Part shown: positions 1 to 61,704 of the stretch, one piece after another
How positions within the stretch are numbered: position 1 is the first letter of the stretch
Layout: each line of letters begins with the position of its first letter
DNA from: Flavobacterium sp.
Lineage (GTDB): Bacteria; Bacteroidota; Bacteroidia; Flavobacteriales; Flavobacteriaceae
Assembly (NCBI RefSeq): GCF_034111225.1
Contig: NZ_JAWUXR010000014.1
Coordinates: forward strand, 10,102-74,101
Direction: 5' to 3'
Length of the DNA stretch: 64,000 bases
Translations under genes and position numbers: made by a program
Notes under the pieces: model-generated
Seen by the model: only the letters and a program-made list of their open reading frames with translations
Told to the model about the DNA's origin: nothing
Database searches by the model: none

Positions 1-38
1 TATAAATCTAATCCTTACTAACTAATAATAAAAAATCT

Positions 39-46
39 TACCTTTG
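39..46 (+). promoter_or_regulatory. Bacteroidota sigma70 -7 element (TACCTTTG)
   Basis: Matches TAnnTTTG, 23 nt before the ATG at 70. Confidence 0.6.
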
Positions 47-69
47 TTGGTTAGACATAATAAATATAA

Positions 70-1758
70 ATGAAAGAAATCAAAAACATTTCGCGCTCTA
101 GAGCGCAAGAGTCGTCAGCAGCTATTGAACGACTGTACATTACAATGAGGCATTTATTTAACAGAGGTTTTTATAAACCAATGGGTATTTCAGGAGAAAC
201 CTTAAGAGAAGCTTTATTATCGCTTCGACCAGAAATTTACGGAAGTATTGCTGAAGAAAAGGTTGAGTTAAGCGGATTATTGTATGTAATTGAACGATTA
301 CCAATTGGTATTGAGCAATGCAGATACATTAATTTAACTTCAGATGAGGGATATTCTAATTCTCATTTTAAAGCGATTGTTCCTCCAAAAAGAAGAAGAA
401 ACTGTTATCGAATAGATGACGAACAAATGAATATTGAAATTACTCGTGGTCGTTCAGATATCTATGATATTTTAACCCATTTGACTTTTATTTTTATAGA
501 ATCACATAAAATAAAAGACCGCGTTTTAATTGATGAAGAAGGAAAAGTATCTCGCGATTGGCAAAAACTTGAAGAAACGGTTTTAAACACTAAAAAATTA
601 ACTTTAATTGAAAGAGAAAAAGCCATTTCTCATGCAGCTAATATTTTAGGGCGAACATTTGCGGAAGTACAAAACATTTATCAAGATTTCGCTACTGCAG
701 ATGCGCCTGAACGATTTTTACATATTGTTTATTGGCTAGGAAAACTTGCTATTGAAGAAGTTGTAGACAACAATAAAAGAACAATTACTTTTAGTCCTAT
801 ACTTAGAGAACGTTTAGGTCACCATATTTATGGAGAAATATGGGCTAACAACATAAAAGAAGTTTTAGAAAAAAATGATTTATTGCAAAGACCTATTCAT
901 GTTATTAGTGCAAACATGCACAGTGTAATGAATTCTATTTTTGCTAAACCGGTTTTAGAATCAAAGTACAAAGGAAAATCAGATTATGTTATTTTTGAAG
1001 ACTTAAGCAGCTCTTCAAATAATGATTTACGTAAAAAAGTAGAAACTGTTGCAATGCAACAAGGAATGGTTTTTTTACCTGATACATCAGGAACAAACAT
1101 TGATGTTCAAATTTTTGATACTGCTAAAATTGATTTAAAAAATTCAGCATTTCCTACAGCGCAAATTAATGGTGAAAAACCAGTTTTAATTGTAATGGAT
1201 TATGCTTTTGGAGAACAAGCTTATGAAACGATTGACGAGCTATTAAAACCTTATAAAAAAGGAAAAGAGAAAACATTTATTAATGTAGAGTCAGTTTCAA
1301 TAATGGGTAAAGCAGGAATTCTTCAAGGAGGAAAAGGAGACATCATGATTCCAAACGCACATATTAATGAAGGAACAGCAGACAATTACCCTTTTGAAAA
1401 CGAACTAACAGCTGAAATGTTTAAAGGAAATGACATGCCTGTTTTTGCAGGACCGATGGTTACGGTTCTTGGAACGTCATTACAAAATAGAGATTTATTA
1501 AAGTTCTTTCATGAATCTACATGGAAAGCAATAGGCTTAGAGATGGAAGGCGCATATTATCAAAAAGCCATCCAATCAGCATCTAAGATTAGAAAAAGCA
1601 TCAACCCTAACGTAAAGGTGCGTTATGCTTATTATGCTTCAGATAATCCTTTAGAAACAGGAAGCACTTTAGCGTCTGGAGGCTTAGGAACAACAGGAGT
1701 AAAACCTACCTATTTAATTACAATTAAAATATTAGAACAAATTTTCAACGTAAAATAA
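70..1758 (+). CDS. DUF6909-like conserved protein with C-terminal nucleoside phosphorylase/nucleosidase-like domain
   Basis: 562 aa; C-terminal half has IMGKAG, GLEMEGA and YAYYASDNP motifs resembling the PNP/AMP-nucleosidase fold. Confidence 0.6.
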   Translation: MKEIKNISRSRAQESSAAIERLYITMRHLFNRGFYKPMGISGETLREALLSLRPEIYGSIAEEKVELSGLLYVIERLPIGIEQCRYINLTSDEGYSNSHFKAIVPPKRRRNCYRIDDEQMNIEITRGRSDIYDILTHLTFIFIESHKIKDRVLIDEEGKVSRDWQKLEETVLNTKKLTLIEREKAISHAANILGRTFAEVQNIYQDFATADAPERFLHIVYWLGKLAIEEVVDNNKRTITFSPILRERLGHHIYGEIWANNIKEVLEKNDLLQRPIHVISANMHSVMNSIFAKPVLESKYKGKSDYVIFEDLSSSSNNDLRKKVETVAMQQGMVFLPDTSGTNIDVQIFDTAKIDLKNSAFPTAQINGEKPVLIVMDYAFGEQAYETIDELLKPYKKGKEKTFINVESVSIMGKAGILQGGKGDIMIPNAHINEGTADNYPFENELTAEMFKGNDMPVFAGPMVTVLGTSLQNRDLLKFFHESTWKAIGLEMEGAYYQKAIQSASKIRKSINPNVKVRYAYYASDNPLETGSTLASGGLGTTGVKPTYLITIKILEQIFNVK

Positions 1759-1763
1759 TAACT

Positions 1764-2729
1764 ATGAGCTCAAACCCTCAAGATCAAGAAATAGACTTAG
1801 GTCAAGTTTTTAATAAAATAGGAAATCTGTTTCAAAAAGGAATAGATTCTATTTTTGATTTATTTTTATTTCTTAAAAGAAATTTTTTAATACTAATGAT
1901 TTTGTTAATCTCTGGAATAGTTTTAGGTTATTTTTTAGACAAAAACAACAAGTCTTATACTCATGAAATTATTGTGACTCCTAATTTTGCAAGCGTAGAC
2001 TATTTGTATTCTAAAGTTGAATTATTAAAGTCAAAAAAAAATGAAAACGACACTACTTTTTTAAATTCTTTAGGCATTAAAAATGTAAAAAATTTGAATT
2101 CAATTGAAATTGACCCAATAGTTAATATTTATTCATTTATAGGTCAAAATAATACAAATTTCGAATTCATTAAATTGTTAGCAGAAGACGGTGATCTTGA
2201 AAAAATCATTAAAGAGGAGACTACAAGTAAAAATTATCCATATCATATAATAAAGATTACCACAAACGAACAATCATCAGAAGATAACACAACGCAACCA
2301 ATAATATCGTTTCTAAATCAATCAGAATATTACTCTAATTTTCAGAAAGAATTTGTAAACAATATTTATATTAAAATGAAGGCAAATGATAGCGCTATTG
2401 CTCAAATAGATAAGCTTTTGGATGGGTATTCAAGTAGTATTGCGAGTAGCCAAAAAAGCGAAAACTTAGTTTATAATAACGAAAACAACCAAGTAAATGA
2501 TATTTTAAAAACGAAAGATGGTTTAATTTCAGAGCAGGGTTCATTAAGAATGAGTTTAGTTAATAATGATAAAATAGTAAAATCACTTAGTACTACAATT
2601 AATTTAAAAAACACAAAAGGTTTAAATGGGAAAATGAAATTAGTATTCCCAATACTTTTTATTGGATTGTTTTTTATTTTCTATTTATTTAAGCTCTTTT
2701 ATATAGCTCAATTAACAAAAAGACTTTAG
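1764..2729 (+). CDS. Wzz-like polysaccharide chain-length determinant
   Basis: 321 aa; N-terminal EIDL motif, one TM helix near each end, periplasmic loop between; precedes rfb genes. Confidence 0.65.
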   Translation: MSSNPQDQEIDLGQVFNKIGNLFQKGIDSIFDLFLFLKRNFLILMILLISGIVLGYFLDKNNKSYTHEIIVTPNFASVDYLYSKVELLKSKKNENDTTFLNSLGIKNVKNLNSIEIDPIVNIYSFIGQNNTNFEFIKLLAEDGDLEKIIKEETTSKNYPYHIIKITTNEQSSEDNTTQPIISFLNQSEYYSNFQKEFVNNIYIKMKANDSAIAQIDKLLDGYSSSIASSQKSENLVYNNENNQVNDILKTKDGLISEQGSLRMSLVNNDKIVKSLSTTINLKNTKGLNGKMKLVFPILFIGLFFIFYLFKLFYIAQLTKRL

Positions 2730-2735
2730 TTTAAA

Positions 2736-3749
2736 ATGAAGAATATTTTAATAACAGGTGGTGCAGGTTTTATAGGCGCAAATTTTATCCCCTATTTTAT
2801 TGAGAATAATCAAGATTATAATCTAGTTAATTTAGATTTATTGACTTACGCTGGAGATTTAAATAATTTAAAAGAAATTGAAAACCACGATAGGTATGCT
2901 TTTATTCAAGGAGATATTTGTGATGGCGAGTTTATAAAAGAACTGTTTATAAAATATCAATTTCATGATGTCATTCATTTTGCTGCCGAAAGCCATGTTG
3001 ACAATTCTATTTCAGGTCCAGAAGCATTTATTAAAACAAATGTATTAGGGACATTTAATTTATTAGATTCAGCAAGAAAACTTTGGATGAATGGTCCAAA
3101 TGACTATAAAGATAACTTCAAAAACGCACGTTTTCATCACGTTTCTACTGATGAGGTATACGGAACGTTAGGAGAGACAGGTTTGTTTGAAGAAACAACG
3201 CCTTATGCGCCAAATAGCCCGTATTCTGCTTCAAAGGCAGGTTCAGATATGATTGTGCGTAGTTATTTCCATACTTATGGAATGAATGTAGTTACTACAA
3301 ACTGTTCTAATAATTATGGTCCAAAACAACATAATGAGAAATTAATTCCAACAATTATTCGAAAAGCTATTGCAGGTGAAAACATTCCTATTTATGGAGA
3401 TGGAACAAATGTTAGAGACTGGCTATATGTTCTAGATCATTGTAAAGGAATTGAATTAGCATTTAAGACTGGTAAATCTGGTGAAACTTATAATATTGGC
3501 GGAAGAAACGAAAGAAATAATTTACAGATAGTGGATACAATTTGTGAAATTTTGAATTCTGTAGTTCCTCGTAAAGAAGGGAAATACCAAGATTTAATAA
3601 TTTTTGTAAAAGATAGACCAGGGCATGATATGCGTTATGCTATTGATGCTACAAAAATTGAAACAGAATTAGGTTGGAAAGCAAATGAAAATTTTGAAAC
3701 AGGTATTCGTAAAACGATTACGTGGTACTTAGAAAAATTTCAAGCTTAA
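2736..3749 (+). CDS. rfbB: dTDP-glucose 4,6-dehydratase
   Basis: GGAGFIG, HFAAESHVD, STDEVYG, YSASK, RPGHD motifs. Confidence 0.97.
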   Translation: MKNILITGGAGFIGANFIPYFIENNQDYNLVNLDLLTYAGDLNNLKEIENHDRYAFIQGDICDGEFIKELFIKYQFHDVIHFAAESHVDNSISGPEAFIKTNVLGTFNLLDSARKLWMNGPNDYKDNFKNARFHHVSTDEVYGTLGETGLFEETTPYAPNSPYSASKAGSDMIVRSYFHTYGMNVVTTNCSNNYGPKQHNEKLIPTIIRKAIAGENIPIYGDGTNVRDWLYVLDHCKGIELAFKTGKSGETYNIGGRNERNNLQIVDTICEILNSVVPRKEGKYQDLIIFVKDRPGHDMRYAIDATKIETELGWKANENFETGIRKTITWYLEKFQA

Positions 3750-3776
3750 GGCTATTTAAATTATAAAATAAAGAAT

Positions 3777-4640
3777 ATGAAAGGAATTATTTTAGCTGGA
3801 GGTTCAGGAACACGTTTGCACCCCTTAACATTAGCAGTAAGTAAGCAATTAATGCCTATTTATGATAAACCAATGATTTATTACCCTTTATCAACTTTAA
3901 TGTGGGCTGGAATAAGAGAAATTTTAATAATATCGACTCCTCAAGATTTACCTTTATTTGAAAAATTATTAGGAGACGGAAGTAATTTAGGTTGTCGTTT
4001 TGAATATGCAGTTCAAGAAAACCCAAACGGTTTAGCCGAAGCTTTTATTATTGGAAAAGAATTTGTTGGAAATGATAAAGTTGCTTTAATTTTAGGAGAC
4101 AATATTTTCTACGGAACTGGTTTAGCAGAATTATTACAAACAAATAATGACCCAGAAGGAGGAATTGTTTATGCTTATCATGTAAATGATCCAGAACGTT
4201 ATGGTGTTGTAGATTTTGATGTGAATGGAAAAGTTTTATCAATAGATGAGAAACCAACTCACCCCAAGTCAAATTATGCAGTTCCAGGAATTTATTTCTA
4301 CGACAACTCTGTACTTGAAGTAGCCGCAAACATTAAACCGAGTCATAGAGGTGAATTAGAAATTACCGATGTAAATAAAGAATATTTAAAACAAGGAAAG
4401 TTACAAGTAAGTATTCTGGACAGAGGAACAGCTTGGTTAGATACAGGAACGTTTCAATCGTTAATGCAAGCGGGTCAATTTGTAGAAGTAATAGAAGAAC
4501 GACAAGGTTTAAAAATTGGCGCTATTGAAGAAGCTGCATATAAGATGGGCTTTATTGATGCAGCACAATTACAAAAATTAGCCGAACCCTTACTAAAAAG
4601 TGGTTACGGAACTCACTTAATGAGTTTGATTAAAAAATAA
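3777..4640 (+). CDS. rfbA: glucose-1-phosphate thymidylyltransferase
   Basis: [33 protein letters not shown] motifs. Confidence 0.97.
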
Positions 4641-4642
4641 GA

Positions 4643-5194
4643 ATGAATTTTATTACAACTAAATTACAAGATTGTTTCATTATTGAGCCAAAAATAATTT
4701 CTGATGAAAGAGGTTATTTTATGGAAAGTTTTAATGAAAATGCGTTTGCAAACGGTATAGGACAGAAAGTTCATTTTGTACAAGACAATCAATCATTTTC
4801 AACAAAAGGCGTTTTGCGTGGTTTACATTATCAATGTGGCGAGTATGCACAAGCAAAACTAGTTCGTGTTTTACAAGGAGAAGTTTTAGATGTTGCGGTT
4901 GATATAAGACCAGAATCTGAAACCTATGGTCAACATGTTTCAATTCTTTTGTCAGCAGAAAATAAAAAACAATTTTTTGTACCAAGAGGTTTTGCACATG
5001 GTTTTTTAGTATTAAGTGACACTGCTACTTTCTTCTATAAATGTGATAATTTTTATAATAAAGAAAGCGAAGGCGGACTTATGTATAATGATAAAAAAGT
5101 AAATATAGATTGGAACTTTCCTATAGATGAATTAATTATTTCAGAAAAAGACCAAGTGTTACCAACATTAGAAAATGCAAAAAAAGTATGGTAG
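4643..5194 (+). CDS. rfbC: dTDP-4-dehydrorhamnose 3,5-epimerase
   Basis: DERGYF, LRGLHYQ, VPRGFAHGF, YKCDNFY motifs. Confidence 0.97.
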   Translation: MNFITTKLQDCFIIEPKIISDERGYFMESFNENAFANGIGQKVHFVQDNQSFSTKGVLRGLHYQCGEYAQAKLVRVLQGEVLDVAVDIRPESETYGQHVSILLSAENKKQFFVPRGFAHGFLVLSDTATFFYKCDNFYNKESEGGLMYNDKKVNIDWNFPIDELIISEKDQVLPTLENAKKVW

Positions 5195-44555: not shown

Positions 44556-45995
44556 ATGGTATTAAGCAGATTTTGGTTAGCAATTTTTATTTCGTCAATT
44601 GCCTTTGTGGTAATCAGTTTGTTTTCTGGCACAACATATACCATCGATTATGTATTGAATGGCGAAAGAGGTAACCCTATATTAATTTCTGAAAAATATA
44701 TAGATCAAGTTCCTGCTTTTATAAAAGATAGTATCCAACTGAAAGACGACAAAACAATGATTGTTAATCGTAATGTATCAGATCCTGATACGACGTATGT
44801 TTACAAAAATCAAACGGTGCAAATTTACAGCGGTGTTCAAAAATCTGATGGATTGTTGGCAACCTGTAAAAGCAGTTTAGTTGATATAATAATTCCGCTT
44901 ATTGCTTATTTAGCTTTCTTTTGTGGATTGATGGAATTGTTAATCATATCTGGAGTTTCCGGAAAATTAGCCAAAGTTTTGAGTCCAGTTTTTGTAAAAG
45001 TATTTCCAAGTATTCCTAAAAATCATCCTTCTATTTCCTATATGACGTTAAATTTTGCGGCAAACTTTTTAGGATTAGATTCGGCTGCAACACCTTTTGG
45101 TTTAAAAGCTATGGAAAGTTTGCAAGAGCTCAATGAAGATAAAGATAGAGCCAGTGATTCGCAAATTATGTTTATGTGTTTGCATGCTTCGGGTTTAACT
45201 TTAATTGCAACTTCAATTATTGGATATAGAGCAGCAGCTGGTTCTAGTAACCCTGCAGATGTGATGTTGCCTTGTATCATCACTTCGTTTATTGGTACAA
45301 TTGCGGCTTTTTTAATTGTTGGAATTAAACAAAAAATTAATTTCAAAAGTGCTTCATTAGCAATTGGATTAATTACATTAATTGGGGCAATTATTGGCTT
45401 GTTGATGTATGTAAATCATTTGGATATTATTGGAAAAAATTATTTTACATCTAATCTTTCGGGATTAATATTATTAGCAATAATTGGTTTTACCTTGCTT
45501 TATGCATTCAAAAAAGAAAAGTTATTTGCCGAAGCGAGTACAACCGTTTTTGATGCTTTTGTAAAAGGAGCAAATAACGGTGTAAAAACTGGTGTTACTA
45601 TTTTTCCATATGTTTTAGGAATGTTAGCTGCCATTTCATTATTTAGAAATAGTGGATTGTTTGATATTATAAGTAATAGTCTAGCGTATGTTTTTTCAAC
45701 TATTGGTGTGAATAAACAAATTATCGATTCCTTACCGGTTGCTTTATTGCGACCTTTTAGTTCTGCAGGTTCAAGAGGGTTTTTGATTGATTCGATGAAT
45801 ACTTTTGGAGCCGATTCTTTAACTGGAAGATTGAGTAGTATTTTTCAATGTAGTGCCGAAAGCACTTTTTATGTAATTGCGGTTTATTTTGGTTCTGTGA
45901 ATATAAAAAATACACGATATGCTTTAACTACGATGCTTTTAGTAGACTTAATTTGTGTAATTACTGCAATTTTTGTGGCGAGTTGGTTTTTTTAA
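44556..45995 (+). CDS. fused SpmA/SpmB nucleoside-recognition-domain membrane protein
   Basis: NFLGLDSAATPFGLKAM, LRPFSSAGS, ESTFYVIAVYFG. Confidence 0.88.
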   Translation: MVLSRFWLAIFISSIAFVVISLFSGTTYTIDYVLNGERGNPILISEKYIDQVPAFIKDSIQLKDDKTMIVNRNVSDPDTTYVYKNQTVQIYSGVQKSDGLLATCKSSLVDIIIPLIAYLAFFCGLMELLIISGVSGKLAKVLSPVFVKVFPSIPKNHPSISYMTLNFAANFLGLDSAATPFGLKAMESLQELNEDKDRASDSQIMFMCLHASGLTLIATSIIGYRAAAGSSNPADVMLPCIITSFIGTIAAFLIVGIKQKINFKSASLAIGLITLIGAIIGLLMYVNHLDIIGKNYFTSNLSGLILLAIIGFTLLYAFKKEKLFAEASTTVFDAFVKGANNGVKTGVTIFPYVLGMLAAISLFRNSGLFDIISNSLAYVFSTIGVNKQIIDSLPVALLRPFSSAGSRGFLIDSMNTFGADSLTGRLSSIFQCSAESTFYVIAVYFGSVNIKNTRYALTTMLLVDLICVITAIFVASWFF

Positions 45996-46014: not shown

Positions 46015-46434
46015 ATGAAAAATAATATTTTAATACTTTCAATATTACTTGCATTTTCTTGTAATAAAATTGTTACTAAAGAGAATGATGAAATTGATTT
46101 AAAAGAAGCAAAAATTGTAACAAATGATTTTTATAATGAAATAATTTCAAAAGATACTTTATCCGTGATTAAAAACCTCGATAAAACTATTGATGAAAAA
46201 GAGTTTATTGATTTAATAGTAAGCAATTATAAAGATTTTGGTAAGATTACTGAGTTTAATATTAGCAGTGTTAATACTAAAAGTATTGAAAAGAATAATT
46301 CTACATTAATTGAATACAAAATATCAATTAATGTTAAATACGAAAATAAAAATTGTATTGAATATTTAATGTTTACAAATGAGAATAATGAAAAGCCACT
46401 TTTAAACAAATATTTGATAAACCCTGTAAATTAA
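46015..46434 (+). CDS. hypothetical lipoprotein
   Basis: Lipobox AFSC; 139 aa. Confidence 0.6.
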   Translation: MKNNILILSILLAFSCNKIVTKENDEIDLKEAKIVTNDFYNEIISKDTLSVIKNLDKTIDEKEFIDLIVSNYKDFGKITEFNISSVNTKSIEKNNSTLIEYKISINVKYENKNCIEYLMFTNENNEKPLLNKYLINPVN

Positions 46435-46637
46435 TGAGTTTTTATGAAGAATTAATTGCAACATTTTTTCAAGAAGTTTTATATAAGGCTATAAAATTCA
46501 TTGGCACAGTTATAAAATGGATTTTTTATTTAGGCAAGAGACCAATTAGCCAAATTAGAAAAGAAAATTGGAATACAAGAGTTGGTTTCGCAGTCTTTAT
46601 TTTGCTAATTCTTTTTATAGTGTATTTGATAAACTAG
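46434..46637 (+). CDS. hypothetical small membrane protein
   Basis: 67 aa; start overlaps the previous stop; C-terminal TM helix. Confidence 0.5.
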   Translation: MSFYEELIATFFQEVLYKAIKFIGTVIKWIFYLGKRPISQIRKENWNTRVGFAVFILLILFIVYLIN

Positions 46638-46691: not shown

Positions 46692-48296
46692 ATGGATTTT
46701 ATATACCAAGACCCGTATCCCATTTTAAAAGACGATACACAATACAAAAAAATTTCATCTGAATTTGTAAAAGTTAAAAAGCTAGGCGACAGAGAAATTT
46801 TGACTATTGACCCAAAAGGATTAGAGTTATTATCAGAAGTTGCAATGAGCGATGTTTCGTTTATGTTACGTACTAAGCATTTAAAAAGTTTAGCCAATAT
46901 TTTAGATGACCCTGAAGCGACGGATAACGATCGTTTTGTGGCGTATAATTTGTTGCAAAATGCTTCCGTAGCTATTGAAGGAGAATTGCCTTCTTGTCAA
47001 GATACCGGAACGGCTATTGTAATGGCTAAAAAAGGAGAAAACGTATTTACAGGTGTTAATGATGCAGAATGGCTTTCTAGAGGGATTTTCAATACCTACG
47101 AAAAGAAAAACCTTCGTTATTCTCAAATTGTGCCAATCAGCATGTTTGAAGAAAAGAATTCGGGTTCAAACTTACCTGCACAAATAGATATTTATGCTAA
47201 AAAAGGAAGTTCTTATGAGTTTTTATTTTTAGCAAAAGGAGGAGGTTCTGCTAATAAAACATTCTTATATCAAAAAACAAAATCATTATTGAATGAGAAA
47301 GGAATGGAAGAGTTTGTTCGTGAAAAAATCAAAGATTTAGGAACATCAGCTTGTCCGCCTTATCATTTAGCTTTGGTAATTGGAGGAACTTCTGCTGAAG
47401 CTAATTTAGCAACAGTTAAAAAAGCATCTGCTGGTTATTTTGACGAATTACCAACTTCAGGAAATATGGCTGGTCAGGCTTTTCGTGATTTAGAATGGGA
47501 AAAAAGAGTACAAGAAATTTGCCAAGAAAGTGCAATTGGAGCACAATTTGGTGGAAAATATTTTACACATGATGTTCGTGTAATTCGTTTGCCACGACAT
47601 GCTGCTTCTTGTCCGGTTGGTCTAGGAGTTTCTTGTTCTGCCGATAGAAACATTAAAGGTAAAATTACCAAAGATGGAATTTTTGTAGAGCAATTAGAAA
47701 CAAATCCTGCTCAATTTTTACCAGAAGTTGCGCCACATTTAGCTCCAGCTGTAGAAATTGATTTGAACAGACCAATGGCTGAAATTTTAGCGGAATTGAC
47801 TAAGTATCCAATTAAAACACGTTTAAAATTAAGCGGAACTGTAATTGTAGCTCGTGATATTGCACATGCAAAAATTAAAGAACTGTTAGATGCCGGTAAA
47901 CCAATGCCAGAATATTTTAAAAACCACCCAGTATATTATGCTGGACCTGCTAAAACACCAGAAGGAATGGCTTCAGGAAGTTTCGGACCAACAACTGCTG
48001 GGAGAATGGACCCTTATGTAGATGAGTTCCAAGCTGCAGGTGGAAGTATGATTATGTTGGCAAAAGGAAACCGTTCGCAACAAGTTACAGATGCTTGTGC
48101 ACAACACGGCGGTTTTTATTTAGGTTCCATTGGAGGACCGGCTGCGATTTTAGCAAAAGATAATATTCTTAAAGTTGAGGTTGTAGATTTTGAAGAATTA
48201 GGAATGGAAGCTGTTCGTAAGATTACAGTTAAAGATTTCCCAGCTTTTATCATTACCGATGATAAAGGAAATGATTTCTTTGCGAATTTGAAGTAA
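46692..48296 (+). CDS. class I (Fe-S) fumarate hydratase
   Basis: [40 protein letters not shown]. Confidence 0.96.
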
Positions 48297-48330
48297 TTTT
48301 TAATAAAAATAGAGAAAAGAAAATTATGAA

Positions 48331-48360
48331 AAACTGTTAGCGAAAGCTAGTAGTTTTTTT
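48331..48360 (+). terminator. terminator after the fumarase gene
   Basis: AAACTGTTAGC-GAAA-GCTAGTAGTTT (GNRA loop) followed by a T tract. Confidence 0.8.
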
Positions 48361-48460
48361 GTTTTAATAAAACACCTTCTTATCAAACGTTCAAAAAATA
48401 AGTTATTGAAAAAAATTTTTTTTAAAAAAAATATTTAACTTATCTGCTTTTATTTAAATT

Positions 48461-49885
48461 TTAAGAAATATTTATTGTTGCAATTGCCCATTGAGATTGG
48501 TTTGTGTCAATATATTTAACTAATACAAAAAACTTTGTTCCATTTGAATTAAAAAACCCAAAATAACCATAAGATGATCTAAAAGAAACTTCACCGTTTG
48601 AATTAATGGTCCTGTGTTTTGGAATTTCAATTTCGCTTAAATTTAAAAGTTGAGTGTTGAAAATTCTAATTTTATTACTACGTACAAAAGCATAATAATC
48701 TGGGTTATATGTAAAAAGAGCACAGATTCTATTTGAAACAGAATTAATATCCATAATATCTATAACCTTATTATCATCTCCTACTAATTCCTCAAAACTA
48801 GATAAATAAACTAAGTCATTATTTTGAATTACGGAACTACTAAAAACATTTTTACTATTTGCAAATATTTTATTTCCATTTTCAGAAAACCAAAAATTTT
48901 TACCAAAATCATAATTTCCATGATAATATGAGTCATAAAGATATTGTGCTGTACCATTTGTTATATCATATTTATAAATATCAGATGGTATTACTTCATT
49001 AGTTGTATAAATATAATTTCCTGAAGGGTGAAGTTTAGCTTTTACATGGTTAGGGTAATTAGGTGCTGAATTAGTTTGACTAAGTGTTTCTTGTCCATTT
49101 GATAAATTCACACTTCTCAATTTTTGATTTGAAACATTAGAGGTGATGTATACCCAATTATTAGGCGCAAGAACAATATCAAAAATATCCGTTGATACAG
49201 GGTAATTGTTTTCAAGGGTCATTGAATTTAAATTTACATAGCTGAAACTACCATTATGTCCAACAACGGCATGGTTCCCTCCTTGACCAATAGAAACACA
49301 TTTAGGTATATTATTTAATGATAATGATTCTTCTGTGTTATTAGTTATATTAAATCTTCTAATTTGATTTGGGTTTTCCGAAACAATAATCAATACATCA
49401 TTTACTCTATCATACTCTGCATCTAAAACATTACCTTCAATAAACCATTTATCTTCTGTGTAATTATTTATTTGAATAATTTGAGAATATGATTGCCCCA
49501 TATTATTATTTACTTTTGTTGTCAAATTATAGATTTGTGTGATCATATTTGACCTATCTAAAGTTAAAGTAACTTCGATTGAAGCCCCAGGCTGTAAAGT
49601 TCCTGAATTTGGACTTGCAGATATAAAAGTACTTGGGTTTGTTTCAGCCCAATTCCAATCAAATGAAGTATTGCCTAAGTTTTTTATTAAAAACGAATTT
49701 GTGTTCTCAAGGTAATCAAATGTTATATTGTTTTTAGAAACTGACATAACTGTAGTTACCTGATCAGCAGGATTGTTGTTTTCCGGATTGTTTATATCCT
49801 CATCTTTACTACAGCTTAAAAGAAGAATAGTAAAAATAAGTAAACAAAAATGAATTATTTGGCTATTTTTATTCTTTTCCATCAT
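48461..49885 (-). CDS. surface lipoprotein with BACON/Ig-like domain and beta-propeller-like region
   Basis: Lipobox LLSC followed by SKDED; ISASPNSGTLQPG Ig-like motif; repeated aromatic beta strands; -7 element at 49924-49931. Confidence 0.7.
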   Translation of the reverse strand: MMEKNKNSQIIHFCLLIFTILLLSCSKDEDINNPENNNPADQVTTVMSVSKNNITFDYLENTNSFLIKNLGNTSFDWNWAETNPSTFISASPNSGTLQPGASIEVTLTLDRSNMITQIYNLTTKVNNNMGQSYSQIIQINNYTEDKWFIEGNVLDAEYDRVNDVLIIVSENPNQIRRFNITNNTEESLSLNNIPKCVSIGQGGNHAVVGHNGSFSYVNLNSMTLENNYPVSTDIFDIVLAPNNWVYITSNVSNQKLRSVNLSNGQETLSQTNSAPNYPNHVKAKLHPSGNYIYTTNEVIPSDIYKYDITNGTAQYLYDSYYHGNYDFGKNFWFSENGNKIFANSKNVFSSSVIQNNDLVYLSSFEELVGDDNKVIDIMDINSVSNRICALFTYNPDYYAFVRSNKIRIFNTQLLNLSEIEIPKHRTINSNGEVSFRSSYGYFGFFNSNGTKFFVLVKYIDTNQSQWAIATINIS

Positions 49886-49946
49886 GATTAACCCTTATTT
49901 AATGTAAATTTTTTTATAAAATTCAAATATAAATAAAATTCTACAT

Positions 49947-50294
49947 TTTTTACTAGAAGTTGTAACGCAATTAGCACCAGCTGTAGAAATTGTTTTGAAC
50001 AGACTAATGGCTGAGGCTTTAGCGGAATTGACAAAATATCCAATTTAAAAACGTTTAAAATTAAGTGGAACAGTTATCATGATTCGTTATATTGCTTGTG
50101 CAAAACACGGTGGTTTCTATTTAGGTTCAATAGGAGGGCCGGCTGCCATTTTAGCAAAAGACAATATCTTAAAAGTAGAGGTTGTAGATTTTGAAGAATT
50201 AGGAATGGCAGCGATTCGTAAAATTACAGTTAAAGACTTTCCAGCGTTTATTATTACCGATGATAAAGGGAATGATTTTTTTGCGAATTTGTAA
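49947..50294 (+). pseudogene. second, decayed copy of the fumarase 3' end
   Basis: Aligns to 47715-47861 and 48093-48296; TAA at 50046; in-frame 231-bp deletion. Confidence 0.92.
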
Positions 50295-50315: not shown

Positions 50316-50348
50316 AAAAGGCTGCCTAGATAACTAGAGCAGCCTTTT
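50316..50348. terminator. bidirectional terminator
   Basis: AAAAGGCTGC-CTAG-ATAA-CTAG-A-GCAGCCTTTT. Confidence 0.85.
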
Positions 50349-50370: not shown

Positions 50371-53300
50371 TTATTCTTTAATGAATTTTTTAGCTATTTT
50401 TTCTTTATAAGTATTCGTTTCAATTATGAAAAATCCAGTACTTAAAGAACTAACATTAATTTGGCCATTTCTTATTTTTCCTTGTAAAACAAGTTGTCCC
50501 ATAATGTTATAGATTTTATAATCTTCTAAATCTTTACCAATTTGAACATTTAAAATAGCTCCTTTAACAGGATTTGGATAAATTGAGAATGCAATTTCAT
50601 TTTGTGTTTCCGTTGTGGTTGATACATTTGAAATTAATGAAGTTGTTCCAACACAGAAACTTGTTGATTCACTTGCTCCAAAAGTTCCGCCACTTGCAAA
50701 AGTTGTTCCGTTTGAAGTTACAGTATAACTACCATTTCCATAAGAACAACACATTCCGTCTCCATAAGAATCTTTAATTTTAAAAGTATAACAACCAGCA
50801 TCTAAACATTTTGTCACTGTTAACGAAGATCCGTCAGCTTGACTTCCGTATGTTCCTCCTGAGAAAACAACTTGATTACTCGCATTTAAAATTTCCCAAC
50901 TTGTTTCTTCTGGGTAGTTGTCAAATGTCATGTTAATATTTACGTTAGTACAAACTGGAGTAGAAGTAGTAGTTAACGAAACGTCATCTACAGCAATATC
51001 TCCTTGCCAAGTTGTAGCTGTTGTCCCTACGAAACGCAATTGAACTGTGTTTCCGCTGTAACTTGTTAAACTTACATTTGCTGTTAACCAACTGTTTCCT
51101 TGGTTACCCGATTTGCTCCAAATTTCAGTCCAAGTAGTTCCATTATTTGTACTAGCTTCTAATTTTAATGCTCCCATAGTTGATGCGCCATACATGTGGT
51201 ATTTGAAATTAAATACTGCAGATGGAGCATTTGTTAAATTGAAACAAGGTGATTTTAAAATAGTTTTTTTGTTAGAATAGTTAGGGCTTGAAGCTTCCAC
51301 ATATACATAATATGTTCCTTGTGCTGCTGAAGATGGACCTGTGTTACTTGACGGAGTTCCGTTTGCATCTACAATCCAGTCAAAATCATCTGCTGAATCT
51401 TGTGTCCATGCTCCTAAAGTGTTTTCAAATCCTTCAGAGTATGGGAATGTTGAAATAGCTCCAGTACATCCAGAAGAAGAGCCAGTTGTAGTTACGCTTA
51501 CACTATTACTTGAAGCGGAAACATTTCCAGCAACATCTTTTGCTTTAACCGTAAAAGCATAAGTAGTACTTGCAGTTAAACCAGTTATGTTTGCTGAAGT
51601 TGTTGTAACTGTTCCAAGATTTGTAGTTCCTCTGTATACATCATAACCAACAACACCAACATTGTCAGTTGATGCTGTCCAGTTTAAAGTAGTAGTAGTA
51701 CTTGTAGTTCCACTAGCAACTAAGCTTGTTGGCGCTGTTGGCGCTTGTGTATCTGTAGCGCCTTGGTAAGCACTACCAATTCCTACAGCATAAAATGCAT
51801 TTGTAGTAGCAATTGTTTCGGCAGAAGTTGCACCGTATAAATCAGTAGCAGCTTGAATTCCATAGGTTCTTGCATTGGCAAAAGTAGAGTTAGCAGATAA
51901 ATAAACACTTTCTAAACGATAAGCAATATTAGCAGCTTTGTCCATCCCTATTCCCGTTACACTATAAGAACTTCCTATGTCATTTGTTCCTGATTTCCCT
52001 TGAACTAAAATATAAAACCAGTGGTTTAACACTCCTGAATTTGTATGTACCCCGCAGTAATCATTACTTTGTGTAGGAGTTCCACAATTTGGGTTTTGCC
52101 AATAAGTACCTCCGTAAGTATCAGGTTGTCCTTCACTTTTCGGATTGCTCATTGAACGTAAAGCCAAATGTCCAGAACGTCTTTCAATATCTTCGCCAAT
52201 TAACCAAGTGCTTTTTGTAGGCGCTGCATAATATTCAACAGCAGCTCCCCAAATATCTGAAAAACCTTCATTCATAGCGCCAGATTCTCTTTGGTATGCT
52301 AAATTAGCTGTGTAAGTACAAACTGCATGCCCTATTTCATGTGCAGCAACGTCTAATGATGTAAGAATATCAAAATAAGTGCCACTTCCATCACCATAAG
52401 TCATTCGAGAACCATCCCAAAATGCATTGTCATAATTCGAACTATAATGAACATAACTATTAATTGCCGCTCCAGAATTATTATAACTATTGCGATTGTG
52501 TTTTGTCATTAAATAATCGTAAGTCATTTCTGCTCCCCAATGTGCATCTAAAGCACCATTGTCTTTATTAGCCGAATGTTCTGATGTTGTCCAGTTGTTG
52601 TCATTATCTGTAAAGTTCACAGCTGAATTATAATTAGTCCCCGTATTTAAGTCATAAGTATTCACCCCACTACCACGCGTAGCGTCTTTTAAAACATAAC
52701 TAGAGCCAGAAAGAGTTGTTTGAATAGTTCTTGAACCACTATAACGAGTTGCCGCTGTTCCAGACACTAAGGCATCAAAGCCGGTTACTATTTTACTGGT
52801 TTCTTCTTGAGTTAATAAATTGTCACATTTAGTACCTTTATTAAATAGTGAAGAAGAATAACCAAAATGAGTTGCGTGCTTTATAGTAGCATTATAAAAC
52901 AAAACATCTCCAGTTTGAGCATCTACATAAACATCGCCTCTGCTTAAAGGTTGTGTTGCATAAATATCAAATTTATAAGCTAGTTTTAAATTTGAGGCAT
53001 CTGATAACTTTTGTGAATTATCATTAAAAATCGGTAATAAAACTAGTTCTCCTTGAGGTTTTTTGTAATTATCTAATTTTGCAGCTTCTGAAGCATTGTC
53101 CCAAAGATATTGTGTTGCATTAAGATGTTGTGTTGCTTTTTGTAATGCATCTTGAGCAGTGATTTCTGGAACAAGTGAAACTGAATTAGTTTTATACATT
53201 TCGCCGTTCATAGCGGTTATTTTACCATTTTTTGAATGTAAAGTATAAGTAGCAAATTCAACTTTAACCCCATTTTGATAGATTTGGTATTTATCATGTT

Positions 53301-53559
53301 TAAAACCTAATTTATCAGTTTCGGTATATATTTTTAAAAATTGAGTTCCGTCCTGAATTTTAAATTGTTCTTTAAATACTTTTTCAAAGTCATTAGACTT
53401 ATAAACTGAACTTTCATTAAACGACAAATAACTTATTTGCCCAAAAGCATCTGTTTTTTTAAGCTTAATGTTTTTGTCTGCTTCTTGTGCAAAGGTTGCG
53501 CAAGAAAACAATGAAAATGCTGTAAACAAGGCAATTTTCTTGTGTAAATTTTTTCCCAT
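50371..53559 (-). CDS. M4 thermolysin-like metalloprotease with FTP/PepSY propeptide, Fn3, MAM-like domain and T9SS CTD
   Basis: HEIGH, NEGFSD, GVHTNSG; DTQAPTAP Fn3; WIVDANGTPSSNTGPS MAM-like; IYPNPVKG...KKFIKE. Confidence 0.93.
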   Translation of the reverse strand: MGKNLHKKIALFTAFSLFSCATFAQEADKNIKLKKTDAFGQISYLSFNESSVYKSNDFEKVFKEQFKIQDGTQFLKIYTETDKLGFKHDKYQIYQNGVKVEFATYTLHSKNGKITAMNGEMYKTNSVSLVPEITAQDALQKATQHLNATQYLWDNASEAAKLDNYKKPQGELVLLPIFNDNSQKLSDASNLKLAYKFDIYATQPLSRGDVYVDAQTGDVLFYNATIKHATHFGYSSSLFNKGTKCDNLLTQEETSKIVTGFDALVSGTAATRYSGSRTIQTTLSGSSYVLKDATRGSGVNTYDLNTGTNYNSAVNFTDNDNNWTTSEHSANKDNGALDAHWGAEMTYDYLMTKHNRNSYNNSGAAINSYVHYSSNYDNAFWDGSRMTYGDGSGTYFDILTSLDVAAHEIGHAVCTYTANLAYQRESGAMNEGFSDIWGAAVEYYAAPTKSTWLIGEDIERRSGHLALRSMSNPKSEGQPDTYGGTYWQNPNCGTPTQSNDYCGVHTNSGVLNHWFYILVQGKSGTNDIGSSYSVTGIGMDKAANIAYRLESVYLSANSTFANARTYGIQAATDLYGATSAETIATTNAFYAVGIGSAYQGATDTQAPTAPTSLVASGTTSTTTTLNWTASTDNVGVVGYDVYRGTTNLGTVTTTSANITGLTASTTYAFTVKAKDVAGNVSASSNSVSVTTTGSSSGCTGAISTFPYSEGFENTLGAWTQDSADDFDWIVDANGTPSSNTGPSSAAQGTYYVYVEASSPNYSNKKTILKSPCFNLTNAPSAVFNFKYHMYGASTMGALKLEASTNNGTTWTEIWSKSGNQGNSWLTANVSLTSYSGNTVQLRFVGTTATTWQGDIAVDDVSLTTTSTPVCTNVNINMTFDNYPEETSWEILNASNQVVFSGGTYGSQADGSSLTVTKCLDAGCYTFKIKDSYGDGMCCSYGNGSYTVTSNGTTFASGGTFGASESTSFCVGTTSLISNVSTTTETQNEIAFSIYPNPVKGAILNVQIGKDLEDYKIYNIMGQLVLQGKIRNGQINVSSLSTGFFIIETNTYKEKIAKKFIKE

Positions 53560-60699: not shown

Positions 60700-61704
60700 A
60701 TGAGTTCAGAAAAAGACGCTAAATTAAAAGCATTACAACTTACATTAGATAAGCTTGATAAAACTTATGGTAAAGGAACCGTAATGAAATTAGGAGATTC
60801 AGCTGTTGAAGAAATAGAAACAATTTCTTCTGGTTCGCTTGGAATTGACATTGCTTTAGGTGTAAATGGATATCCAAGAGGTAGAATTATTGAGGTATAT
60901 GGTCCAGAATCTTCTGGAAAAACAACGTTAACATTACATGCTATTGCAGAAGCTCAAAAAGCTGGCGGAATTGCTGCTTTTATTGATGCGGAACATGCTT
61001 TTGATCGTTTTTATGCTCAAAAATTAGGTGTTGATATTGATAATTTAATCATGTCTCAACCAGATAATGGTGAGCAAGCATTAGAAATAGCAGAAAACTT
61101 AATTCGTTCAGGAGCTATTGATATTGTTGTAATTGACTCGGTTGCTGCTTTGACGCCAAAGAGTGAAATTGAAGGAGACATGGGAGATTCTAAAATGGGT
61201 TTACATGCTCGTTTAATGTCTCAAGCATTAAGAAAATTAACTGGGACTATTCATAAAACGAAATGTACAGTTTTCTTCATTAATCAATTACGTGATAAAA
61301 TTGGAGTAATGTTTGGAAGTCCAGAAACAACAACTGGAGGTAACGCTTTGAAATTTTACGCATCTGTTAGAGTTGATATTAGAAGATCTACTCAAATTAA
61401 AGACGGCGATAGCGTTATTGGAAATAGAACCAGAGTTAAAATTGTAAAAAACAAAGTTGCACCGCCATTTAGAACAGCAGAGTTTGACATTATGTATGGT
61501 GAAGGAATTTCTAAAGTAGGAGAGGTTTTAGATTTAGCTGTAGAATTTGAAATTGTTAAGAAAAGCGGTTCTTGGTTCAGTTACGGAGAAACAAAACTTG
61601 GACAAGGACGAGACGCTGTTAAAGCTTTGATTAAAGATAATCCAGAACTAATGGATGAATTAGAGTTGAAAATTAAAGAATTATTAAAAGAGAAAAATAG
61701 TTAA
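60700..61704 (+). CDS. recA: recombinase RecA
   Basis: [34 protein letters not shown]. Confidence 0.99.

Follow-up and report, generated by a model that had tools for sequence, protein, structure and literature searches.

The 64-kb stretch of DNA analyzed in this study (hereafter the window; all coordinates are window positions) derives from a marine/estuarine Flavobacterium of low guanine-plus-cytosine (GC) content and carries fum, an intact fumarate hydratase gene (46692-48296, plus strand, 534 amino acids), followed by a lipoprotein gene and a second, incomplete copy of the fum 3' end. Analysis of this locus suggests that it is probably a 3'-end displacement scar, in which a foreign segment of approximately 2.0 kb (48102-50092) has been inserted into the native fum gene at 48092-48101. 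The native gene is split at a single site, both fum pieces within the segment are foreign, the two halves of the downstream fragment differ in age, the insert is present or absent among near-identical strains, and recombinase genes are lacking. Read 5' to 3', the locus comprises fum, a terminator (T1), the convergent lipoprotein gene, the fum fragment, a second terminator (T2), a convergent M4 peptidase gene and coenzyme A (CoA) transferase genes. The presence of the Pfam domains Fumerase (PF05681, 1e-74) and Fumerase_C (PF05683, 3e-84) in one chain identifies the fum product as a class I fumarate hydratase (FumA/FumB type). The protein shares 87-98% identity with Flavobacterium fumarate hydratases, with the best species-level matches in Flavobacterium genomes at 86-89% amino acid identity; exact-protein look-ups returned nothing for it or for P0001 and P0005, homologues of the lipoprotein.

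An earlier note on this DNA had described a direct repeat of the fum 3' end with a terminator after each copy. The repeat is present and resolves into two blocks in direct orientation. Block 1 (47715-47860 versus 49947-50092) is identical at 121 of 146 nucleotides (82.9%), while block 2 (48092-48290 versus 50093-50291) is identical at 177 of 199 (88.9%). The second copy is not a complete 3' end, however, as it lacks 47861-48091, a plus-strand segment of 231 nucleotides (77 codons, in frame by alignment) that the intact gene retains, and it carries an in-frame TAA at 50046-50048. A chance origin of the repeat is ruled out because both copies are recognisable as fum coding sequence. Within the intact gene (copy A) we distinguish A1 (47712-47860) and A2 (48102-48296), and within the fragment (copy B) we distinguish B1 (49944-50092, codons 341-390) and B2 (50093-50294, 66 codons plus stop), all on the plus strand. 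Both terminators proved to be real hairpins. T1 (48328-48359) lies between the convergent fum and lipoprotein genes and is followed by a T run (-14.3 kcal/mol, z -3.5), while the stronger T2 (50316-50348) is bidirectional (-19.8 and -26.5 kcal/mol on the two strands; z -5.8 at -19.8 kcal/mol), serves the original fum end as well as the M4 peptidase gene, and is conserved in all relatives according to pattern scans.

The two blocks differ in the kind of change they have accumulated. Over the last 66 codons, copies A and B differ at 21 codons, 18 of them synonymous, and at 22 of 198 nucleotides (about 89% identity), exactly as the earlier note had counted by hand. Because 18 of the 21 differing codons are synonymous, block 2 has evolved under purifying selection. 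In block 1, 20 of 48 codons differ, with 8 synonymous and 12 non-synonymous or nonsense differences. The 231-nucleotide deletion, the stop codon and the 12 non-synonymous changes of block 1 indicate that the second copy is a dead fragment. The proposal that both copies evolved as functional alleles needs refinement: block 2 differs mostly synonymously and both of its types end intact fum genes elsewhere, but B1 is decayed and both copies are mosaics. The fragment also holds an ATG-initiated open reading frame (ORF) of 71 codons (50079-50294) that encodes the last 66 fumarase residues. This ORF is almost certainly a by-product, and selection on it as the cause of the intactness of B2 becomes unneeded once B2 is taken as a recent native allele.

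The junctions of the insert are defined to within ten bases. The sequence TGCTTGTGCA is common to both, occurring on the plus strand at 48092-48101 and again at 50093-50102, and marks the interval in which native fum is interrupted. At the left joint the sequence passes from backbone-type to foreign between 48101 and 48102 in register, with no insertion or deletion. At the right joint the register is lost: the end of B1, equivalent to 47860, abuts the equivalent of 48092, and the two positions have the similar short flanks GATATTGCACATGCAAAA and GATGCTTGTGCAAAA. At the 231-nucleotide gap, the junction is bordered by GATATTGCACATGCAAAA and, across from it, by GATGCTTGTGCA. Native fum has lost or duplicated at most 10 nucleotides; it runs to 48101 and resumes at 50093 (equivalent to 48092). 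The foreign A2 carries a private K-to-Q change at 48102 and an extra Lys codon ahead of the stop. A2 and B2 form repeats of 203 nucleotides (89% identical) whose longest exact match covers 31 nucleotides (48177-48207 = 50178-50208, plus strand) and is a candidate site for excision by homologous recombination. As a side observation, 9 of the 10 bases of TGCACATGCA (47865-47874, directly beyond block 1 and at the left edge of the 231-nucleotide segment) agree with the reverse complement of TGCTTGTGCA, with which block 2 begins, and the end points of the gap and the insertion thus also form an imperfect inverted pair 231 nucleotides apart.

Comparison with close relatives establishes which parts of each copy belong to the strain. 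Several marine and estuary metagenomes (designated X-runs) contain strains near-identical to the window backbone. In run X9, no more than one mismatch (0-1) occurs per 150-220 nucleotides in pieces covering the M4 peptidase gene (99.5-100% identity), while in run X6 that gene differs at 14 of 794 nucleotides (98% identical) and fum is only 94% identical. The X9 fum piece at 47777-47946 differs from copy A at 2 of 170 nucleotides and the X27 piece at 47853-47986 at none of 134, which makes A1 backbone-type. A 158-nucleotide X9 contig (48046-48203) crosses the junction. It is identical to copy A through 48101 and then shows 12 differences within the 75 nucleotides of 48102-48176; against B2, the same contig differs at only 2 of 112 nucleotides, and upstream it continues as a normal, undeleted fum. 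Contigs from X27 and X36 leave the match to copy A at the same base, and the B-type base is present in every contig of X7, X27 and X36 that covers 48102. The intact fum end of X8 differs from B2 at 8 of 201 nucleotides. A distal end of the A2 type occurs in an X7 contig (3 of 98 nucleotides differ), where it is joined straight to T2. In comparison with six sequenced alleles, sites private to copy A number 7 in 48102-48170 versus 1-2 (at most 4) per 100 nucleotides elsewhere, and all but one of the 7 are synonymous.

These comparisons indicate that A1 and B2 represent the strain's own allele and that A2 is foreign. The two copies thus make up a reciprocal mosaic, with native A1 and foreign A2 in the intact gene and an old, foreign B1 and native B2 in the fragment. 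The copies are not each other's closest relatives, and both the synonymous nature of the block 2 differences and the alleles of the relatives bear out the earlier suggestion of 3'-end replacement by incoming DNA rather than simple duplication. The copies switch at 48092-48101 rather than at the left edge of the repeat. A maximum chi-square breakpoint at 47744-47792, obtained with the distant L088 and L085, had first hinted at the left edge; it was dropped because the closer X9, X27 and X36 show copy A to be backbone-like through 48101.

The fragment itself is of two ages. B1 and A1 differ at 26 sites, comprising 15 private to B1, 9 third-position sites that vary among the relatives and 2 private to A1. 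At most of the 9 polymorphic sites the B1 base is also present in L083, L085 or L086. The private changes of B1 fall mostly at codon positions 1-2 (12 of 15), run mostly from G/C to A/T, and include the one that creates the stop codon. These patterns indicate that B1 descends from an allele other than A1 and decayed afterwards; local hypermutation as the sole cause was rejected because B1 also differs at the 9 polymorphic synonymous sites. Private non-synonymous changes number 13 in 144 nucleotides of B1 versus 2 in 198 nucleotides of B2 (Fisher p = 0.0006), and B1 has no private synonymous changes. This contrast implies that the two halves of the fragment have been non-functional for unequal times, with B2 nearly pristine in comparison with X9 and X8. 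A degenerate scan with one genome per species found no fumarase with the two private residues of B2, which therefore probably reflect decay after displacement.

The distribution of the lipoprotein gene, referred to here as the cargo, further distinguishes the window from its relatives. The cargo-free arrangement consists of fum, about 20-30 nucleotides, T2 and the M4 peptidase gene, and is found in metagenome contigs L085, L086, L088 and L166-L169. An X6 contig joins 48289 directly to 50311 with no cargo, and no contig over 48410-49819 was found in X6, X7, X8, X9, X27 or X28. In these cargo-free runs (X6-X9, X27 and X28) the pieces of fum and the M4 peptidase gene are 98-100% identical to the window. 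A second lineage has cargo but no scar: in contigs L083 and L082 of metagenome-assembled genomes (MAGs), fum is followed by the convergent lipoprotein gene, a 150-nucleotide spacer, T2 and the M4 peptidase gene. The possibility that this spacer is a further-decayed scar was rejected, as the spacer has no residual similarity to fum (best z = 2.5; 11 of 300 shuffles scored higher). In the upstream DNA of the lipoprotein gene, similarity of the window to these scar-free contigs stops near 49927. In Flavobacterium cauense (L089), a lipoprotein homologue with 67% amino acid identity is likewise convergent to fum. Only the window combines cargo and scar, and a second fum fragment was found in none of about 160 other fetched loci. 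The cargo is therefore not invariant across strains, a point that the earlier note had marked for checking: backbones of 98-100% identity lack it and another lineage carries it scar-free. Across other Flavobacterium species the order of Gate-domain gene, fum, a stretch of 0.5 to about 7 kb and CoA-transferase genes is conserved, and the varying length of that stretch shows the region downstream of fum to be variable.

These observations are consistent with the following course of events. The usual population arrangement would be fum, T2 and the oppositely reading M4 peptidase gene. The foreign segment would start with the last 65-66 fum codons of another lineage, so that the reading frame continues and the fumarase stays intact. 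T1, the convergent lipoprotein gene, 58 nucleotides of its upstream DNA and the older, decayed fum piece B1 would follow within the segment. The strain's own last 66 codons would have been pushed downstream, leaving B2 as a promoterless, truncated fragment beside T2. Since the foreign segment includes B1, adjoining the upstream DNA of the lipoprotein gene, the donor must have carried an older displacement scar; it would already have had the order fum, lipoprotein gene and old fum scar, and the locus would record at least two displacement events. An arrangement of the donor type, fum with a convergent lipoprotein gene, exists in L083/L082 and L089. The left joint may have formed by in-register homologous pairing of fum with fum. 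The right joint, where 47860 meets 48092 at a TGC...TGCA microhomology, may instead be the product of illegitimate or microhomology-mediated joining. Recombination directed by fum homology and completed by a single illegitimate joint is the simplest class of mechanism. Within it, three routes would produce this outcome, fit alike and are not separable here: homology-facilitated illegitimate recombination, mending of a broken fum templated by the donor locus, and Campbell-type insertion of a circle that had come out by recombination between repeats of the donor itself. The A2/B2 repeats could later delete the cassette and restore a chimeric, functional fum.

A different history, which we rate as unlikely, places the scar in the resident strain and patches it later. 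Cargo and a full fum scar would be ancestral, separate imports from cargo-free strains would have replaced fum as far as 48101 and, beyond the cargo, everything from 48092 of the scar to T2 and the peptidase gene, and the cargo-free relatives would have lost the cargo or never had it. Recombination is pervasive in and around fum, with mosaic signals in many pairs and with identities to L167 of 98% for the Gate-domain gene, 93% for fum and 82% for the M4 peptidase gene, and a lipoprotein gene lies beside fum in F. cauense too. This history is rated below insertion because it needs two independent end points within the same 10 nucleotides, a coincidence of about 3% over the 585-nucleotide repeat region. 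A single incoming cargo-free molecule, moreover, would delete the island rather than patch both of its sides.

The geometry of the locus also resembles that of a site-specific integrative element. Under this explanation the island (48092-50092) would be the remnant or satellite of an element that targets a core in fum, its integrase being lost or supplied in trans. The flanks are arranged like attL and attR, there is one insertion point with the same 10 nucleotides at both junctions, the substitute 3' end is mostly synonymous and the displaced end is a pseudogene, as for icd/icdC (PMC13626634), and a 10-nucleotide interval is too short for comfortable RecA exchange. A close parallel is the insertion of e14 and phage 21 at E. 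coli icd (Hill et al. 1989, PMC210168; PMC13626634). That system and the island both target a housekeeping gene of the tricarboxylic acid (TCA) cycle, in both the incoming substitute 3' end is mostly synonymous and the original end is displaced to the far side as a pseudogene (icdC), and in both recombination between the ends would restore a chimeric functional gene. In contrast, the 15-kb prophage e14 encodes an integrase and is excised upon SOS induction, whereas the island measures 2.0 kb, holds a single lipoprotein gene and lacks a recombinase. The island's far arm is also an older decayed fum piece, and its right joint is out of register by the 231-nucleotide gap.

No integrase, transposase, recombinase, excisionase, phage gene or tRNA gene was found in the 64-kb window, with the recombinase check based on Pfam matches of ORFs of at least 110 amino acids (at least 140 in the first 33 kb). 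This agrees with the earlier note's remark that no integrase is present. In phage and plasmid collections the island had no match beyond ordinary fum genes. The identical core at both junctions and the gene-preserving substitute end that characterize e14-type insertions are thus present, while an element-encoded integrase is absent. The sole gene of the island is an ordinary chromosomal lipoprotein gene, with homologues beside fum and scar-free in other species, and the arm beyond the core is fum sequence (B1), unlike attP arms. On this evidence we regard an integrative element as quite improbable. The window does contain recA (60700-61704), the presence of which says little by itself.

The possibility that the contig is an assembly artefact, formed by a chimeric join of the fum ends of two strains, was raised by the metagenomic source of the contig and by the 31-mer that the repeats share, a branch point of k=31 graphs. 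A public seawater run, assembled independently at k=31, contains a 2,030-nucleotide unitig (Logan contig SRR25824424_6170) identical to 48178-50207. Without a break, it covers distal A2, T1, the lipoprotein gene, B1 and part of B2, and its depth equals that of the flanking unitigs (34, 39 and 33). B1, with its stop codon and 231-nucleotide deletion, would be impossible in a working gene, so the fragment really exists, and we consider an artefact very improbable. In the source run, unitigs end at the 31-mer common to A2 and B2 (48177-48207 and 50178-50208), across which k=31 cannot phase. A look for excision revealed no joint contig in the source run and equal depths, within the inability of k=31 unitigs to phase that 31-mer. 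In run X2 (2025), a 260-nucleotide contig on 48231-48488 (98-99% identical) leads from distal A2 via T1 to the 3' end of the lipoprotein gene and places the left side of the island in at least one further sample. Finally, a local tandem duplication of the fum 3' end that trapped the lipoprotein gene between its copies, followed by their divergence in situ, would account for two direct copies on the same strand 2 kb apart, yet it is highly implausible, given that a dead copy should gain mostly non-synonymous changes (18 of the 21 in block 2 are synonymous), that B2 is nearer to the intact genes of other strains than it is to A2, that the A2 and B1 alleles are foreign to the backbone and that near-identical strains lack the whole insert.

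Several points weigh against insertion of a foreign segment as the origin of the scar. The closest relatives, X9, X27 and X36, consist of short k=31 unitigs at 2-13x from mixed communities, in which phasing is limited to about 170 nucleotides. Integration is attested by the window contig alone, as the unitigs equally fit a cargo-free chromosome together with a 2.0-kb circle. No second genome with the same island was found, so that the donor and its older scar are deduced. At 10 nucleotides, the crossover interval is short for RecA-dependent exchange and fits a site-specific enzyme equally; because of this short interval, such an enzyme acting in trans is possible. Lastly, all sampled alleles are of intermediate similarity (88-93%), which implies frequent recombination in fum and weakens a single-event history.

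Results from comparison with known systems place the island in an already known kind of displacement; its layout is that of icd/e14 minus the prophage and the integrase. Effector displacement and homology-facilitated illegitimate recombination provide mechanistic precedents (PMC5361080, PMC3240628). At Rhs, contact-dependent inhibition (CDI) and type VI secretion system (T6SS) effector-immunity loci, a new 3' module comes joined to conserved upstream sequence and recombines with the resident copy (Jackson et al. 2009, PMC2935791; Kirchberger et al. 2017, PMC5361080). As in the window, the resident 3' end is displaced downstream as an orphan, and successive events stack relics comparable to B1 and B2. 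In those loci, however, selection acts on the variable 3' end as the cargo (a toxin tip and immunity gene), whereas the protein specified by the two fum ends is almost identical, a gene of its own, convergent to fum, forms the cargo, and the host gene encodes a core metabolic enzyme and not a polymorphic toxin.

Homology-facilitated illegitimate recombination is known both from transformable bacteria and from conjugation (de Vries & Wackernagel 2002, PMC122324; Prudhomme et al. 2002, PMC122325; PMC3240628). It shares with the island one in-register homologous joint, one out-of-register microhomology joint and foreign DNA between them. The laboratory events differ in that the recipient usually loses the DNA from anchor to joint, while fum has lost nothing and both joints lie within 10 nucleotides; natural competence is not established for the window organism. 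The island does show the features of such a displacement, namely an in-register joint, an out-of-register microhomology joint, an orphan 3' end that matches the host and sister strains free of the insert. In Campbell-type insertion-duplication, a circle integrates by a single crossover. The island resembles its product in that the left copy passes from host to donor, the right copy passes from donor to host and direct repeats flank the insert. This route would require a 2.0-kb circle with a gapped fum fragment, which was not observed, and a crossover at the extreme edge of the homology.

The earlier idea that fum acts as a recombination anchor for cargo exchange is plausible. A bolder proposal, which is conceivable but doubtful, is that the island (48092-50092) is a recombinase-less cassette that moves as a unit. 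A circle excised between the fum repeats would re-enter a naive fum at TGCTTGTGCA, the live arm A2 would repair the gene, B1 would be a fossil of earlier hops, the host 3' end would become the new right repeat, and fum would serve as a docking gene for surface-protein cargo in marine flavobacteria. If the cassette does move in this way, it would represent a simple form of gene mobility without a recombinase of its own. The two-age scar, with its old B1 and fresh B2, suggests repeated use of the same spot.

The locus is of interest as a core metabolic gene that seems to have served as a landing site for an accessory surface-protein gene without mobile-element machinery, resolved base by base. 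The incoming DNA would compensate for the damage it causes by supplying a working gene end. Such footprints are well documented for prophages (icd/e14) and polymorphic toxin loci and have rarely been resolved for ordinary environmental chromosomal genes. Since strains with 98-100% identical flanks differ in carrying it, the insert can serve as a natural marker for gene gain by recombination in populations of marine Flavobacterium. Truncated second copies of a 3' end next to an accessory gene form a signature of this process that is worth scanning for, and k-mer assemblies break exactly at such repeats.

The cargo is the only gene of the island and encodes a lipoprotein of 474 amino acids (48461-49885, minus strand). 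It is preceded by 58 nucleotides of its native upstream DNA (49886-49943, minus strand), which alignment with L082 and L083 suggests arrived together with it. The GC content of the gene (24-30%) lies below that of its neighbours. Its sequence reads as a signal peptide, Cys25 and then SKDED. An acidic stretch after the lipidated cysteine resembles the surface-export signal of Bacteroidota lipoproteins and is a candidate for such a signal. The match to BACON_2 is weak (24.2 bits versus a cut-off of 25), and the homologues are annotated as BACON-domain proteins. An AlphaFold2 model (mean predicted confidence, pLDDT, 89) contains an immunoglobulin-like domain and a seven-bladed beta-propeller, and Foldseek returned generic WD40-type propellers and 3hrp, a Bacteroides structural-genomics protein of unknown function. 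The predicted structure would support, at most, a role as a surface binding protein. The family is widespread in Bacteroidota, and its distant members (30-48% identity) occur in unrelated contexts.

The gene on the far side of T2 (50371-53559, minus strand) encodes an M4 (thermolysin-like) metallopeptidase with MAM, fn3 and type IX secretion system (T9SS) sorting domains, with 98-100% identical pieces in X6 and X9. Its alleles in L166, L167/L168, X6 and X9 are unevenly related to the window, and the population is strongly mosaic at this locus. Comparison of the peptidase tail among distant relatives yielded no direction. In L082 (3201-6389) and in L083 the peptidase is called as two ORFs (786 and 274 amino acids) versus one of 1,062 amino acids; the split may reflect a frameshift, a pseudogene or a sequencing error. 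Contig L087 (Ga0136587_1002631, 1-4699) has the T2 hairpin and the peptidase tail (90% over 123 nucleotides) and no fum; a truncated M4 peptidase gene and three unrelated ORFs stand in its place, another rearrangement at the same terminator region. A 71%-identical fumarase of a different organism, P0119 (795 amino acids, from an ENA contig), carries an internal stretch of about 262 residues twice in tandem, without any difference; the duplication may be genuine and in frame, or it may stem from the assembly.

Upstream of fum lies a gene for a Gate-domain (nucleoside-recognition) membrane protein (44556-45995). The stretch between the two (46015-46637) has about 20% GC and holds a small lipoprotein ORF (139 amino acids) and a membrane ORF of 67 amino acids. 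No alignment to it could be made in L083 and L088, and an ORF of 183 amino acids takes this position in L167/L168. Since this stretch differs among the relatives, fum has a second small variable spot on its upstream side. Other neighbours in the window include genes for T9SS-sorted peptidases, gldH and the recA mentioned above. The first third of the window is occupied by a large biosynthesis cluster of polysaccharide/O-antigen type (2736-24013), with rml-like genes, glycosyltransferases, two Wzy-like ORFs and a flippase.

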